From Selenomonadaceae bacterium (GTDB lineage Bacteria; Bacillota; Negativicutes; Selenomonadales; Selenomonadaceae), in assembly GCA_017470715.1 (NCBI GenBank), contig JAFUYE010000119.1, positions 7,024 to 71,023 of the forward strand: 64,000 nt of DNA, read 5' to 3'. The notes below the pieces were generated by a model. The model saw nothing but the letters and a program-made list of their open reading frames with translations. It had not been told where the DNA came from and searched no databases. This document shows, in pieces, positions 3,101-58,350 of this stretch; the stretch's first letter is position 1, and each line of letters begins with the position of its first letter. The translations under genes and the position numbers were made by a program.

Positions 3101-3114
3101 TGCGCGTTTATTAT

Positions 3115-3295
3115 CTACTTTCTTTGTGCAGACAAAGAAAGTAGCAAAGAAAACGCGAACGCTCACCAGTTCGCCTTCGCCTACGCGGCGGGCGTTGCTA
3201 GTTCGTAATTCGGAGTAGTCGGCAACGCGTGCCGCTCATGCCCGCAAGTGAAACATCCTGTTTCAATTGCGGGCGCGGTCGTCATCCGTGACGGC
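3115..3295 (+). repeat. structured ~200-nt repeat, copy 1
   Basis: Modules: hairpin CTACTTTCTTTGT/ACAAAGAAAGTAG plus CAAAGAAAA; nested hairpin GCCCGCAA[TGAAACA-TCC-TGTTTCA]TTGCGGGC; terminal hairpin GTCGTCA-TCCG-TGACGGC. Confidence 0.7.
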
Positions 3296-3347
3296 TCCTA
3301 ATTTCGCATTACGAATTCCGCGTTGCGCACGGCATTTTATTTTCCGA

Positions 3348-8110: not shown

Positions 8111-8168
8111 TAGCTTTAAGCTTTAAGCTTTAAGCTTTAAGCTTTAAGCTTTTAGCTTTTAGCTTTTA
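8111..8168. repeat. heptamer array (AGCTTTA)x5 (AGCTTTT)x3
   Basis: Read directly. Starts 5 nt after the carboxypeptidase stop and is followed by CATTACG x2. Confidence 0.9.
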
Positions 8169-8211
8169 AACATTACGCATTACGAATTAATTTTTTGGGA
8201 GATGTTTTGAT

Positions 8212-15898: not shown

Positions 15899-15943
15899 GG
15901 AAATTCCCTCCAAAAGTTTATGTCGCGCCGATTATAACAAATT

Positions 15944-15976
15944 AAGGGGCAAGGGAAAAGGGACAAGGGACAAGTT
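15944..15976. repeat. heptamer array (AAGGGRM)x4
   Basis: AAGGGGC AAGGGAA AAGGGAC AAGGGAC, upstream of the fur-family gene. Confidence 0.85.
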
Positions 15977-15998
15977 GTGATGCCGCAAAAAAATTCCC

Positions 15999-16080
15999 CG
16001 GTTACTTTTAAAAAGTAACCAAACAGTTGACGCGATTAATTTACCGACAACCGAAATTTTATTTCCGCGCCGTGACGTTT
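15999..16080 (+). repeat. TTTTAAAA-palindrome element, copy A
   Basis: CCGGTTACTTTTAAAAAGTAACC + AAACAGTTGACGCGA ... CCGCGCCGTGACGTT. Flanked by 17-bp direct repeats CGCAAAAAAATTCCCCG. Confidence 0.75.
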
Positions 16081-16085
16081 TCGCA

Positions 16086-16111
16086 AAAAAATTCCCCGTG
16101 CGTGACGGGGA
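16086..16111 (-). terminator. intrinsic terminator after recO
   Basis: Minus strand reads CCCCGTCACGCACGGGG followed by AATTTTTTT. Confidence 0.6.
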
Positions 16112-17525: not shown

Positions 17526-17602
17526 ACGTCACGGCGCGGCGATAACGTTTGAAAAAATTTCGGATGCGTCGCGACAATTGTTCCCCCGCTTTTAAAGCGG
17601 GT
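17526..17602 (-). repeat. TTTTAAAA-palindrome element, copy B
   Basis: Minus strand ACCCGCTTTAAAAGCGGGGGAACAATTGTCGCGA ... CGCCGCGCCGTGAC. Flanked by diverged copies of the DUF502 gene 5' end. Confidence 0.7.
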
Positions 17603-27114: not shown

Positions 27115-27136
27115 TGTATTTTAACCTCCGTTTTTT

Positions 27137-27202
27137 AAGGGACAAGTGGTAAGGGAGAAGGGACAAGTTAATTTCTCATTCCAAATTCCACATTCCTAAT
27201 TG
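27137..27202. repeat. composite heptamer arrays (AAGGGAC type, then ATTCCNA type)
   Basis: rplJ-rplL intergenic gap; read directly. Confidence 0.8.
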
Positions 27203-27766: not shown

Positions 27767-27947
27767 TAAAATTTCACCTCCCTGAGTTTAATGAAAAAAT
27801 CCTTCGACCACACAGACCGAAGGAAATTTTAACGTCAAAGTTTCTTTCGACCTGAGCAAGCACTTTAATCGGCGTGCCGAACTTACTTTCTGTGGTCTTG
27901 AATATTTTTTTGCGATTTATCGGAATATCGGGAACAGTAGCGGAAAT
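27767..27947 (-). promoter_or_regulatory. possible L10 (rplJL) leader
   Basis: ~180-nt untranslated stretch with stem-loops in the position where L10 leaders occur. Not matched to a consensus by eye. Confidence 0.3.
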
Positions 27948-27980
27948 AATTCCTAACTCCTAACTCCTAATTCCTAATTA
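27948..27980. repeat. heptamer array (TAACTCC/TAATTCC)x4
   Basis: Abuts the rplA stop. Confidence 0.85.
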
Positions 27981-28705: not shown

Positions 28706-28782
28706 TTAGCTTTTAGCTTACAGCTTTTAGCGAATGAAAAATTGCAATCCTAAAAGCTAAAAGCTACCAGCTGAAAGCTTAA
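28706..28782. repeat. inverted pair of AGCTTTT/AAAAGCT heptamer arrays
   Basis: rplK-rplA gap. The two halves are imperfect reverse complements. Confidence 0.8.
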
Positions 28783-28785
28783 TTT

Positions 28786-29211
28786 TTAAGCGACGATTTC
28801 AATGCCCATTGAACGCGCAGTGCCTTCAATCATGCGTGTAGCTGCCTCGACATCAGCCGCGTTAAGATCTTTCATCTTCAATTCGGCGATTTCGCGAGCT
28901 TTGGCGCGGGGCAATTTGGCAACCTTGTTTTTGTTCGGTTCACCGGACGCTTTTTCGATACCCGCCGCTTTTTTGAGCAGAATTGCCGCAGGGGGCGTTT
29001 TGGTGATGAACGTAAACGAACGGTCTTCGTAAACGGAAATTTCGACAGGGATAATCAAGCCTGCCTGAGAAGCCGTGCGGTCATTGAACTCTTTGACGAA
29101 CGCCATAATGTTGACGCCTGCCTGACCGAGTGCCGGACCTACGGGCGGCGCGGGAGTGGCTTTACCTGCCGGAACTTGCAATTTGACGACCTTGGTAACT
29201 TTCTTTGCCAT
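28786..29211 (-). CDS. rplK: 50S ribosomal protein L11
   Basis: 141 aa; [17 protein letters not shown] motif. Confidence 0.95.
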
Positions 29212-30293: not shown

Positions 30294-30370
30294 TGGTGGC
30301 GGCACACGGATTTGAACCGCGGACACAGCGGGTATGAACCGCTTGCTCTAGCCAACTGAGCTATGCCGCC
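30294..30370 (-). tRNA. tRNA-Met (CAT), elongator type
   Basis: Reverse complement GGCGGCATAGCTCAGTTGG...; anticodon loop TTCATAC; CCA encoded. Confidence 0.85.
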
Positions 30371-30446
30371 TGGAGCTGATGACCAGGATTGAACTGGTGA
30401 CCTTATCCTTACCAAGGATACGCTCTGCCGACTGAGCTACATCAGC
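30371..30446 (-). tRNA. tRNA-Thr (GGT)
   Basis: Reverse complement GCTGATGTAGCTCAGTCGG...; anticodon loop TTGGTAA; CCA encoded. Confidence 0.85.
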
Positions 30447-30448
30447 GT

Positions 30449-30524
<76 letters not shown>

Positions 30525-30589: not shown

Positions 30590-30790
30590 GAATTTTTTTC
30601 GGCGATTTGTCAGTGTGCGGTGTTTGTCGTCGAGAATTTCGGTACGTCCATAACTTTTGATTTTGTAAATCTACTTTTTGTTGCTTGCTTAAATGTATAA
30701 AGAAAAGTTGATTCAACAAAGCAATTTGAAATAGGTATGACAAGTTTTCAACAAGCCATAATCCGCATTTAAATCGGCTGCGAAAACTTC

Positions 30791-32099: not shown

Positions 32100-32155
32100 C
32101 CTGATTCCTCCTTTGCAAAAAATAATTGTTACCCTGAGCGTGTCGGAAAATCAGA

Positions 32156-32375
32156 GGCCGTCACGGATGACGGCCGCCCGCAGTATTTCACGTGATGTGA
32201 AATATGCGGGCACGAGCGGCATGACTTAGCCGACTACTCCGACCGGCGACAACGTAACGCCCGCCGCGCAGGCGTGCCGTTTTCTTTTGCAACTTTTCTT
32301 TTGGGCAAGCAAAAGAAAAGTTGATTCAAAAACTCAAATTCACGATTGCGCCGAATCGAAGCAACAAACTTCATT
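32156..32375 (-). repeat. structured ~200-nt repeat, copy 2
   Basis: Same module order on the minus strand. A 50-nt block (TTGAATCAACTTTTCTTTTGCTTGCCCAAAAGAAAAGTTGCAAAAGAAAA) is identical to copy 3. Downstream stems differ but remain paired. Confidence 0.7.
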
Positions 32376-32577
32376 TGTTTACCGACAACACCTAAAAAAA
32401 ATGAGCCCCTCACGCGAAGAGGCTCTGAACTTGTGTAGGTTTTTGGGTACAAACGCACGCCGCGGGTTCAGTTCGGCACGCGCTTGCAGGGGTAAATCCG
32501 CGGGACGAGGGAGCCGCTCAAAATTTGGGGAGAATCTTAAGTGGAATTCTCGTCCCGAAAGAGGTTCGTGTTACCTA

Positions 32578-54787: not shown

Positions 54788-54858
54788 AAAAATTTCCCTC
54801 CTCAAGTCGACGAAAAAATTTAAACGCGGTCGACACGCCGAATTTATCAAGCGGTGAA

Positions 54859-54893
54859 TCGCGTCAACTGTTTGTCAACTTTTTAAAAGTTGC
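54859..54893 (-). repeat. TTTTAAAA-palindrome element, copy E
   Basis: Minus strand GCAACTTTTAAAAAGTTGAC + AAACAGTTGACGCGA, upstream of putP. No flanking duplication noticed. Confidence 0.6.
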
Positions 54894-56145: not shown

Positions 56146-56313
56146 ACTTTTAAAAGGTGGGCAAACAGTTGGTTAGAAATTTTTATCAACGGCGAATCAA
56201 TTTCGCGGCAAAAAATCCGTCCGTGTTCGTGACATGCGGCACCCGCTTTAAAAGCGGGGGAACAATTAACGCGCCGCAAATTTATCGATATGTCGACGTT
56301 GACGCCGCGCCGA
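56146..56313 (+). repeat. TTTTAAAA-palindrome elements, copies G and C, with a duplicated rsmB 3' end
   Basis: G is CACTTTTAAAAGGTG + GGCAAACAGTTGG. A 65-bp DR1 (56177-56241) follows. C is CCCGCTTTTAAAAGCGGG + GGAACAATTAACGCG...CGCCGCGCCG (56241-56313). DR2 is at 56314-56378. Confidence 0.75.
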
Positions 56314-56321
56314 AATTTTTA

Positions 56322-57611
56322 TCAACGGCGAATCAACTTCGCGGCAAAAAATCCGTCCGTGTTCGTGACATGCGGCAGGAAAATTTTCGTTTCGACAAGC
56401 TCAAAATCTTCATGCGTCGACAAAAATTTTTCGACAACGGATTGATTTTCGCGCTTCAAAATTGTGCACGTCGAATAAACCAAAATCCCGCCGCGTTTTA
56501 AAGTCTCAGCCGCACTCGAAAGAATTTCCAACTGCAACGTCGGCAACTTGTCAATGTCGGCAAGATTTTTCCAACGCATATCAGCCTTGCGACGAATTAC
56601 GCCGAGTCCGGAACAAGACGCGTCAACCAAAACTTTATCTGCCTGCGCGGGAAATTTTTTGCCGAGTTCGCGAGCGTCAATCAACGTCGGTTCGATAATT
56701 TTTATTCCGAGACGTTCGGCATTTTGTTTTATGTGCTCAATTTTCGTTTCGTAAATGTCCGCCGCAACAATTCGCCCGCGATTTTGCATGAGTTCGGCAA
56801 TGTGCGTTGACTTGCCGCCGGGTGCCGCGCAACAATCGATTACGAATTCGCCCGCCTGAGGATTTAAAAATCTTGCCGCAGTCATTGAACTTTCGTCCTG
56901 AACTTGACACAATCCGTCACGCAACGGCTGAAATTTATCAAGTGCTCCGTGTCCGCGACAAATCACACCTTCGGGCGCGAAATTCGCTGGCTCCGCTTGA
57001 ATGCCGAATTTGTTCAGCGCGTCCAAAATTTTTTCCCGTGTCGTGCGCAAAAAATTCACGCGCAGACAAAGCGGCGGATCTGTGTTGTTGAAGTCCAAAA
57101 TTTTTTTCGTCGCGTCAAGCCCGAATTCGTCGACGAACATTTTCACGAGCGGCGCGGGATGAAAATTTCGCAATGCCAACGATTCAACGTCGTCGCCCGT
57201 CGGAAAATCTGATTTATCGGGCTCACGAACTGCCGAGCGCAAAACTCCGTTGACGAATTTCGACGCGCCGATACCACAGAATTTTTTTGCAAGTTCCGTC
57301 GATTCGTTGACCGCCGCAGAATTCGGCACACGATCCAGGAAAAATATTTGATACATTCCGACACGCAAAACCGCCAAAACTTTCGCGTCAACTTTTTTCA
57401 GCGGGCGATTTAAATATTTGGCGATTTTCCAATCGAGTGACGCGCCGGCTTTAACCGTGCCGTAAACCAGCTCCGTGCAAAATTTTCTGTCGAGGTCTGT
57501 AAATTTTTCTTGTCGCAAGGTCTGTGCCAAAACGACATTTGCCCACGCGCCATTTTTGGAAACTTCGTAAACGATTTTTGTTGCCGCCAATCTGACTTTA
57601 TCCACAATCAA
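56322..57611 (-). CDS. rsmB: 16S rRNA (cytosine967-C5)-methyltransferase
   Basis: NusB-like N-domain plus a SAM-MTase domain (DCCAAPGGKS, DASCSG, YSTCT). Confidence 0.88.
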   Translation of the reverse strand: MIVDKVRLAATKIVYEVSKNGAWANVVLAQTLRQEKFTDLDRKFCTELVYGTVKAGASLDWKIAKYLNRPLKKVDAKVLAVLRVGMYQIFFLDRVPNSAAVNESTELAKKFCGIGASKFVNGVLRSAVREPDKSDFPTGDDVESLALRNFHPAPLVKMFVDEFGLDATKKILDFNNTDPPLCLRVNFLRTTREKILDALNKFGIQAEPANFAPEGVICRGHGALDKFQPLRDGLCQVQDESSMTAARFLNPQAGEFVIDCCAAPGGKSTHIAELMQNRGRIVAADIYETKIEHIKQNAERLGIKIIEPTLIDARELGKKFPAQADKVLVDASCSGLGVIRRKADMRWKNLADIDKLPTLQLEILSSAAETLKRGGILVYSTCTILKRENQSVVEKFLSTHEDFELVETKIFLPHVTNTDGFFAAKLIRR

Positions 57612-58287: not shown

Positions 58288-58350
58288 GGAATTAGGAATA
58301 ATTACGATTGCGAATTTAATTCCTAATTCCTCACTCCTAATTCCTAATTG
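58288..58350. repeat. inverted GGAATTA / TAATTCC heptamer arrays
   Basis: Between the RNase E/G stop and the acetyltransferase start. Contains the RNase gene's TAG stop. Confidence 0.85.

Follow-up and report, generated by a model that had tools for sequence, protein, structure and literature searches.

The 64,000-nucleotide stretch of Selenomonadaceae DNA analysed here (the window) carries three copies of an element built around a three-strand purine/pyrimidine module. Comparison of relatives indicates that this module is an H-type pseudoknot with strong covariation, and that changes in its three strands match one another in just the way an RNA triple helix of unusual length would demand. 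With moderate confidence, we read the copies as members of a dispersed, apparently mobile family that would produce a structured RNA from the strand opposite to the one followed in an earlier inspection of the sequence (the initial annotation, whose strand is called the annotated strand below), this RNA having two GGA-loop hairpins and a 3′ pseudoknot holding a triplex.

Sequence comparison over the 64-kb window found the three copies, with a common module order, exactly where the initial annotation had put them. Their location stands, but the elements are longer than it had proposed, extending over 3105-3300, 32140-32388 and 37442-37694 (∼200-250 nt each), and copies 2 and 3 have in common a flank of ∼55 nt on the hairpin side. 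Tested each against 200 dinucleotide shuffles, copies 1, 2 and 3 folded far better than the shuffled sequences (z = −7.5, −7.0 and −6.3 respectively). The three-strand pattern occurs at these three sites only in the window, even with up to 3 mismatches. As first described, it takes the 3-1-3 form in copy 1 (CTACTTTCTTTG / CAAAGAAAGTAG / CAAAGAAAA at 3115-3153) and the 4-1-4 form in copies 2 and 3 (CAACTTTTCTTTTG / CAAAAGAAAAGTTG / CAAAAGAAAA, at 32280-32323 on the minus strand and 37492-37535 on the plus strand). The compensatory change reported in the outer stem of the nested hairpin (GCCCGCAA/TTGCGGGC versus GCCTGCAA/TTGCAGGC) was found as well, the inner stems of that hairpin are unrelated in sequence and each self-complementary, and the terminal GC hairpins differ in stem sequence from copy to copy while keeping their pairing. 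Conservation of the fold despite sequence drift, proposed from the window copies, was seen in these and across ∼100 relatives. A short fragment noticed at 30689-30706 is also real, and is a relic of ∼25 nt. The features of the window are the following:

3105-3300, minus strand (proposed RNA strand): element copy 1, between a corA-like gene and the dnaE promoter.
3115-3144, minus strand: stem 2 of copy 1; on the plus strand 3115-3126 (CUAC and the U-rich tract) pairs with 3133-3144 (the A-rich tract and GUAG), around a loop at 3127-3132.
3145-3153, minus strand: third strand of copy 1, 3-1-3/4 form, UUUUCUUUG on the minus strand.
3240-3274, minus strand: nested hairpin of copy 1, with the minus-strand loop ACAGGAUGU (GGA loop).
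3277-3296, minus strand: GC hairpin of copy 1, with the minus-strand loop ACGGAU (AYGGAY).
30689-30720, plus strand: the relic, an A-rich arm and the adjoining element flank, upstream of the tRNA cluster.
32140-32388, plus strand (proposed RNA strand): element copy 2, between the terminator of a 1418-aa gene and a ubiA-like gene.
32156-32175, plus strand: hairpin of copy 2, with the plus-strand loop ACGGAU.
32176-32211, plus strand: hairpin of copy 2, with the loop GUGAU, its GGA lost by decay.
32275-32289, plus strand: third strand (32280-32289) and pseudoknot strand (32275-32279) of copy 2.
32290-32323, plus strand: stem 2 of copy 2, 4-1-4 form, loop at 32304-32309.
37398-37441, no strand assigned: left copy of a 44-bp imperfect direct repeat flanking copy 3, a displaced second copy of the neighbouring gene's final 13 codons.
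37442-37694, minus strand (proposed RNA strand): element copy 3, between the stop codon of a 289-aa gene (37696) and the terminator of that gene (37354-37373).
37492-37525, minus strand: stem 2 of copy 3, 4-1-4 form, loop at 37506-37511.
37526-37540, minus strand: third strand (37526-37535) of copy 3 and its pseudoknot strand (37536-37540, GGGCA, partner TGCCC at 37508-37512).
37601-37636, minus strand: hairpin of copy 3, with the minus-strand loop AUGGAU.
37638-37658, minus strand: hairpin of copy 3, with the minus-strand loop ACAGGAC.
37695-37738, no strand assigned: right copy of the 44-bp direct repeat, the genuine 3′ end of the 289-aa gene.

Read on the annotated strand, stem 2 consists of CUAC and a pyrimidine tract, paired with a purine tract and GUAG. 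In a gapless alignment of 42 sequences it is 99.8% paired, and the second pair of the CUAC/GUAG extension covaries (UA 26, AU 13, CG 2). The strand that follows had been described as a second copy of the purine strand. In the window it merely looks like one because the 3-1-3 and 4-1-4 forms are symmetric; across the family, it mirrors the purine arm. Two asymmetric forms make this visible: a pyrimidine arm TTTCTTTT with a purine arm AAAAGAAA and a third strand AAAGAAAA, and a pyrimidine arm TTTTCTTT with a purine arm AAAGAAAA and a third strand AAAAGAAA. In all of 96 distinct instances (3/3 in 48, 4/4 in 46 and 5/5 in 2), the pyrimidine arm and the third strand agree in the length of the run adjoining the helix base; these instances were collected with a search pattern permitting mixed run lengths. 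Copies found without the search pattern obey the mirror rule too (5-1-3 forms in L006 and L083, Pasteurella, Burkholderia and Psychromonas), and in Psychromonas two C's in the third strand are matched by two G's at the same places in the purine strand.

The initial annotation had proposed that the three-way covariation reflects either an alternative-pairing switch or a triplex. The covariation is real, and it favours the triplex. A switch of the attenuator or riboswitch kind, in which the third strand competes with the purine arm for the pyrimidine arm, would fit the symmetric 3-1-3 and 4-1-4 copies of the window, where the third strand equals the purine arm. In the parallel (mirror) register, however, the two variable columns are complementary in 42 of the 42 sequences, whereas the antiparallel register of the pyrimidine arm with the third strand always contains a mismatch, reaches 87.5% pairing against 93.7% in shuffles and displays no covariation; asymmetric members always have a C.A mismatch and a G.U there. 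The third strand being always a mirror and never a copy, the result argues against the switch and sets the register of the triplex. Moreover, the elements do not keep a constant position upstream of genes on the same strand, as would suit a switch, riboswitch or attenuator, and copy 3 comes after a stop codon. We therefore hold the switch to be very improbable.

Directly after the third strand (on the annotated strand) lie 4 to 6 bases complementary to the 3′ part of the hairpin loop. Pairing in this loop-to-flank pseudoknot amounts to 80.5%, with changes on both sides in 4 of the 5 pairs, and none of 500 shuffles matched its score. The longest Watson-Crick run between loop and flank averages 3.74, versus 2.66±0.08 when loops and flanks are permuted. 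Among the window copies, the pairing is kept in copy 2 (GGCA on the annotated strand with the loop bases TGCC at 32304-32307) and in copy 3; in copy 1 the partner beside the third strand has decayed, and the pseudoknot is kept in its relative L012. On the opposite strand, the third strand is pyrimidine-rich and runs parallel to the purine strand, with U facing A-U and C facing G-C. The initial annotation had overlooked the loop-to-flank pseudoknot, as it had the cross-phylum distribution, the signs of mobility and the likely functional strand, the opposite one being mentioned in passing.

The hairpins lying beside the module point to a known motif. Two neighbouring hairpins with AYGGAY-type loops are found on the opposite strand of each element: ACGGAU and ACAGGAU in copy 1, AUGGAU and ACAGGAC in copy 3, and ACGGAU with a decayed GUGAU in copy 2. 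Two adjacent A(Y)GGAY hairpins on one strand, in a multi-copy element that is not cis-regulatory, are also the features of the TwoAYGGAY RNA motif (RF01731), described by Weinberg et al. 2010 and judged a probable RNA by its discoverers (PMC2864571). The initial annotation could place the repeat in no known RNA family. This is true of the window copies at threshold, since the Rfam search of the window regions gave no family at the gathering threshold or at E≤10, TwoAYGGAY included (gathering score 43 bits), but it does not extend to the AYGGAY-type loops or to gammaproteobacterial relatives that bear the module and score as RF01731. Six Selenomonad loci gave no TwoAYGGAY match at E≤1; module-bearing stretches of Pseudoalteromonas (L123) and Aeromonas (L122) score 51.3 and 41.5 bits, respectively, against the gathering score. 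For the Psychromonas sequences of the original TwoAYGGAY alignment, the 3′ flank contains the module on the strand of the motif. Human-gut members of the motif are without the module. We conclude that the window copies are new sub-threshold relatives of the known, uncharacterised TwoAYGGAY motif. They differ from it in being below threshold and apparently without the long closing P1 stem, in some loops that read AGGAU or AAGGAC or have lost GGA, and in the pseudoknot/triplex module, which is not part of the published motif. Minimum-free-energy folds of the window copies contain no enclosing P1 stem; short end-to-end complementarity is visible by eye in copies 1 and 2, and it reaches 22 bp in L027. 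The last (GC) hairpin covaries at 6 of its 7 pairs, its 100% pairing being by construction as the set was chosen as hairpins. Weak Rfam matches to Flavo-1 and to miRNAs were dismissed as chance.

We found no description of the module in Rfam 15 or in the searchable literature; apart from TwoAYGGAY and Bp1_684, nothing relevant came up when the literature was searched by topic and by sequence strings. The latter, Bp1_Cand684, is a Burkholderia small-RNA candidate that adjoins the module, only a SIPHT prediction backed by RT-PCR that need not have been strand-specific.

These observations bear on which strand carries the RNA. Read on the opposite strand, the module has the order stem-1 strand, U(n)CU(m), G, CUAC, U(m)CU(n), loop, A(n)GA(m), GUAG. 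Such an order defines a canonical pseudoknot, its U-rich loop 1 parallel to the purine 3′ strand of stem 2 (U.A-U, C+.G-C), with the two AYGGAY-loop hairpins upstream, and a pyrimidine third strand parallel to the purine strand inside an H-type pseudoknot is the established geometry of RNA triplexes (PMC7583470). The two TwoAYGGAY matches, in L123 and L122, also fall on the opposite strand, directly 5′ of the module. Finally, among 55 Selenomonad copies, GGA is present in 75 of the 128 apical loops of the opposite strand, versus 1 of 129 for the annotated strand, the RUCCNU loops of the annotated strand being A(N)GGAY on the other. Some measures were neutral: G.U versus A.C counts (28 versus 24 in the hairpins, 7 versus 5 in the pseudoknot) leave the strands undistinguished, and minimum free energies did not differ between them. 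Several results count against the reading: the orientation of the elements relative to neighbouring genes is random, no promoter or terminator was evident on the proposed strand at the window copies, the human-gut TwoAYGGAY members are without the module, other phyla carry it on a body without GGA loops, and the searches near the copies gave no mobilising gene.

An RNA made from the annotated strand would instead start with a 5′ hairpin, place an A-rich loop 3 in the minor groove of the long stem (as a giant preQ1-I-like pseudoknot), and go on with two RUCCRU-loop hairpins, the last of them an intrinsic terminator. The T-rich tract following the last GC hairpin speaks for it: on the annotated strand there are 4.5 T per 10 nt, at least 3 consecutive T in 20 of 48 copies, and a proper U-run (U6-8) in a few, so that these resemble a terminator for that orientation. 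The copy 2 hairpin was also scanned as terminator-like on the annotated strand, and a −10-like TAGAAT/TTGAAT was seen by eye just upstream of the module in Selenomonads. However, a start directed by that box would fall within the CUAC arm, and this arm covaries with GUAG; transcription of copy 3 would run head-on into a gene; and the TwoAYGGAY models match the other strand. On the annotated strand the third strand is a purine strand antiparallel to the purine arm and would need the minor groove as loop 3; contacts there would not be expected to call for a G facing every G-C pair. Nor are purine third strands an established RNA triplex motif (PMC7583470). We consider an RNA from the annotated strand quite unlikely. 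For transcription from the opposite, U-rich strand, we would give about two chances in three; the null results for wobble pairs and energies, the T-rich tract and the sub-threshold TwoAYGGAY scores of the window copies are what keeps the estimate there.

The module is widespread. One genome per species was scanned with the pattern TTTCTTT-N(5-14)-AARRAAAGTNGCAAARRAAA (26 specified bases), and at least 112 loci across phyla matched it exactly, for a chance expectation well below 1. Among the matches listed, most are metagenome-assembled genomes (MAGs) of rumen Selenomonadaceae/Quinella with several copies per genome, and the closest is SRR8387720_bin.10, 86% identical to the window over 7.5 kb. 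The ∼45-nt module was also found in Chitinophagaceae, Bacteroidales, Nitrospirota, Desulfobacterales, Peribacteria, Clostridia, Elusimicrobia, Cloacimonadota, Sulfuricurvum and Haemophilus, and BLAST added Pasteurella, Aeromonas, Pseudoalteromonas, Burkholderia, Ralstonia and Paraburkholderia, the last with at least 40 places per replicon. Among the carriers in culture are Psychromonas ingrahamii 37, Pasteurella multocida, Haemophilus paracuniculus CCUG 43573, Burkholderia cepacia ATCC 25416 and Paraburkholderia caribensis MBA4. No module match was obtained in E. coli genomes, and viral contigs are nearly devoid of it (5 matches).

In Desulfobacterales, Peribacteria, Bacteroidales, Ralstonia, Haemophilus and others, the same module sits on a different, larger structured body. 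Its closing helix reads GCCCUGCG...CGCAAUGGGC on the annotated strand, and its core AAACUCG-hairpin-CUCAGACAGU; the body has no GGA loops, and searches with larger relatives gave no Rfam match at gathering or permissive thresholds. Occurring on different bodies, and being absent from the gut TwoAYGGAY members, the module behaves as a portable domain.

The elements also appear to be mobile, as judged from presence/absence differences and flanking direct repeats. L087, which is 86% identical and syntenic to the window, has a full element between the positions corresponding to 16060 and 16061, where the window has none, and in L054 a short element replaces the last codons of a gene. Look-ups of exact proteins showed copy 2 joined to different upstream genes in another sample (L002, upstream of ubiA) and yielded no empty site. 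Direct repeats of 16-50 bp flank ∼10% of the copies, and none of 16 bp or more was found in mismatched controls. Copy 3 has one of 44 bp, L106 and L035 have 41 bp each, L093 has 50 bp, and a Bacteroidales MAG has a perfect repeat of 43 bp; elsewhere they measure 16-20 bp. The element ends beside them are variable. Terminal inverted repeats are not general: the end motif was found on both sides in 3 of 89 copies, examples being seen in L027/L037 and in window copy 2, which ends in the short inverted motifs GTCGGTAAA (32377-32388) and TTTTCCGACAC (32140-32150). Long and variable flanking repeats, variable ends and rare inverted repeats together indicate that the elements were moved or copied, though not by standard cut-and-paste.

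Neighbouring genes did not point to an enzyme. Clustering of all ORFs within 3.5 kb of 117 copies gave no recurrent linked gene, only housekeeping ones such as plsX, fabK, sucD and histidine kinases, and the ORFs abutting the module are housekeeping as well, except for one RAYT near the L041 copy; that RAYT has its own, different REP and was rejected as mobiliser. The neighbours were convergent in 7 cases, tandem in 21 (11 versus 10 for the two orientations) and divergent in 3.

Like REP/REPIN, ERIC, Correia, RUP, BOX and MITE-like repeats, the elements are short, non-coding, intergenic, multi-copy, inserted in either orientation, polymorphic and rich in hairpins. They differ from these in the rarity of terminal inverted repeats, in flanking repeats that are long and variable instead of short and fixed, in a 45-nt module kept across many phyla, and in the covariation of the pseudoknot and triplex. 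We rejected a MITE on account of the 3 of 89 copies with end motifs on both sides, the lack of a fixed flanking-repeat length and the varying ends, and a REP/REPIN mobilised by a RAYT on account of the absence of a recurrent neighbour gene, the separate REP of the L041 RAYT and the presence of flanking duplications.

In a rival reading, the structure acts as DNA. Formed in single-stranded DNA, the hairpins, the pseudoknot and a triplex of T.A-T/C+.G-C (one strand) or A.A-T/G.G-C (the other) would be a REP/REPIN-like recognition structure for a transposition or recombination enzyme, the RNA having no role. A mirror repeat is the classical requirement for intramolecular DNA triplexes, and the stems are near-perfect palindromes in which G.T and A.C decay is equal. 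Insertion in either orientation, tail-to-tail doublets in Pasteurella and Ralstonia, the high copy number, the differences between related genomes and the direct repeats flanking some copies would all suit such an element. The GGA loop motif, on the other hand, is strongly strand-specific, and is so in both hairpins; no transposase, RAYT or other enzyme is recurrently linked; the flanking repeats are long, whereas HUH-type single-strand transposition proceeds without target duplication; and the family overlaps TwoAYGGAY, a probable RNA according to its discoverers (PMC2864571). A purely DNA-level element is possible, but we find it doubtful.

In the opposite-strand RNA that we favour, two A(Y/N)GGAY-loop hairpins would be followed by a variable middle and by the 3′ H-type pseudoknot. 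In stem 1 (4-6 bp), the loop of the long hairpin would pair with the bases immediately upstream of the U-rich strand, and loop 1, U(n)CU(m), would occupy the major groove of stem 2 (12-13 bp), parallel to the purine strand of that stem, giving a predicted 8-10 consecutive U.A-U triples and one C+.G-C triple. Going by A-form geometry in general, not by a computed model, the 4-bp CUAC/GUAG extension would let loop 1 rejoin the helix via a single conserved G. Our preferred role for the pseudoknot with its triplex would be that of a very stable 3′ cap, blocking 3′ exonucleases or fixing the 3′ end, and this domain may possibly also be recognised when the element is copied to new sites. The GGA loops would bind a protein, for which CsrA is the obvious candidate.

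CsrA has been proposed as a binder of TwoAYGGAY RNA (PMC4333381); csrA was not found in the window or in the relative sequences examined. As in CsrB/RsmZ RNAs, GGA is placed in hairpin loops, and the copy 1 loop ACAGGAUGU fits the known high-affinity consensus, as a putative CsrA site. Copy 2 gave a weak clan-level match to PrrB_RsmZ (12.7 bits). The elements differ from CsrB/RsmZ in having two GGA sites each and no terminator on that strand, and in their density, ∼1 element per 20 kb (3 in 64 kb) versus one to a few genes per genome.

The module shares its topology with the major-groove U.A-U pseudoknots of telomerase RNA, SAM-II/SAM-V and preQ1-II: a pyrimidine-rich loop 1 parallel to the purine 3′ strand of stem 2, no loop 2, and a short loop 3 crossing stem 1. 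It departs from them in its 8-10 predicted layers, against about 2-5, in not lying upstream of genes, in having no evident ligand pocket, and in the 4-bp extension of the helix beyond the triplex. With the ENE/MALAT1 elements, including those of plant and fungal transposable-element RNAs, it has in common a long U.A-U run broken by C+.G-C, an encoded A-rich tract near the 3′ end and an association with mobile elements (for known cases, see PMC7583470). The U strands of the module are adjacent and form a pseudoknot, however, while in an ENE a U-rich internal loop clamps the tail; the host here is bacterial, and a stabilising role would be by analogy. We rejected an ENE/MALAT1-type element on this topology, a pseudoknot with adjacent U strands and no internal loop.

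A triplex that did form would exceed by far every natural RNA triple helix so far known from bacteria and be comparable in length to that of MALAT1; the triplexes of riboswitches have about two canonical U.A-U triples and a few non-canonical ones (PMC7583470). Bacteria would thereby have a first counterpart of the triple-helix caps found on eukaryotic and viral non-coding RNAs and on transposon transcripts. For TwoAYGGAY, uncharacterised since 2010, the relationship adds a new domain at the 3′ end, greatly extends the range of hosts and ties the motif to mobility.

The usual schemes of bacterial transposition do not account for flanking duplications that are long and variable and are accompanied by neither terminal inverted repeats nor a linked enzyme. 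As a conjecture, and a rather unlikely one, the cross-phylum RNA triple helix of 8-10 layers may be the 3′ domain of a non-autonomous superfamily (with TwoAYGGAY-type and AAACUC...CUCAGACAGU-core bodies), where it would stabilise the transcript and offer a handle for copying the RNA into new sites, leaving variable ends and target duplications of 16-50 bp. Such an element would be a SINE-like bacterial retroposon, or would follow an otherwise new route of mobilisation.

A resemblance of the module to the HIV polypurine tract (AAAAGAAAAGGGG) was set aside as coincidental, the G-rich part varying freely. Cultured carriers of the element exist in Psychromonas, Pasteurella, Haemophilus, Burkholderia, Paraburkholderia and Ralstonia.

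Tail-to-tail pairs of the dispersed element were seen in other genomes. In Pasteurella multocida (L119, 1500-1915), such an inverted doublet occupies the whole dapF to DUF484/xerC spacer, and in Ralstonia (L121) a tail-to-tail inverted doublet of two elements likewise fills an intergenic spacer. A rearranged context was found in L002, a stretch from another sample: between L002 3950-4450 and window 32100-32450, the ubiA-like gene and the element are identical, whereas the neighbours on the other side differ, being PP2C, PASTA-kinase and RsgA genes in L002 and the 1418-aa repeat protein in the window. The breakpoint falls within the flank of the element.

An insertion sequence and a RAYT-like gene were detected within and near, respectively, copies of the module (the hairpin with its third and pseudoknot strands). 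On the Paraburkholderia caribensis replicon NZ_CP012748 (L118, 1540-2925), an IS256-family insertion sequence interrupts a module copy; it separates the third strand from the pseudoknot strand and has an 8 bp target duplication, AAAGAAAG. A module copy in L041 has, at a distance of 130 nt, a RAYT-like (IS200-type Y1) gene (1619-2143), whose ORF has GTAG-headed REP palindromes within it and next to it; this proximity is probably coincidental.

Besides the main element, the window contains a second, small repeat family, whose unit is a TTTAAAA-loop hairpin followed by AAACAGTTGACGCG. In other phyla, the large versions of the main element have the AAACAGT motif in their core as well. The copy at 16004 has a 16 bp direct repeat, GCAAAAAAATTCCCCG, on both sides (15985-16000 and 16083-16098); this repeat corresponds to the 5′ half of a terminator. 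A 66-nt direct duplicate (56176-56241 and 56312-56377, 98% identity) adjoins these small hairpin repeats.

Tandem repeats are also found. The intergenic region 39963-40203 carries dense arrays of 8-nt units, first of TAGATCGA-type, then of CTAACCAT-type, which jointly form an imperfect inverted repeat of ~83 nt. Heptamer microsatellites of three kinds occur in many intergenic regions of the window.

Small repeats, microsatellites and known RNAs in the window
16004-16037, 51884-51915, 56150-56176, 56241-56278: small TTTAAAA-loop hairpin repeat
54857-54890, 17565-17602, minus strand: small TTTAAAA-loop hairpin repeat
8112-8176, 28708-28789, 40913-40956, 41610-41687: heptamer microsatellite AGCTTTA
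1995-2034, 27162-27201, 27940-27979, 58310-58349: heptamer microsatellite CTAATTC
15942-15976, 27135-27169, 46922-46956: heptamer microsatellite AAGGGAC
27785-27913, minus strand: ribosomal protein L10 leader
30294-30524, minus strand: three-gene tRNA cluster (Met, Thr, Met)

In a Selenomonadaceae MAG (L014), a RAGATH-18 RNA match of 70 bits was obtained at 2046-2107, on the minus strand. Finally, short paralogous genes are arrayed at 48628-51800 of the window with their upstream regions repeated; the repeats, of 300 nt and 153 nt, are 80-84% identical and the start regions are repeated too.
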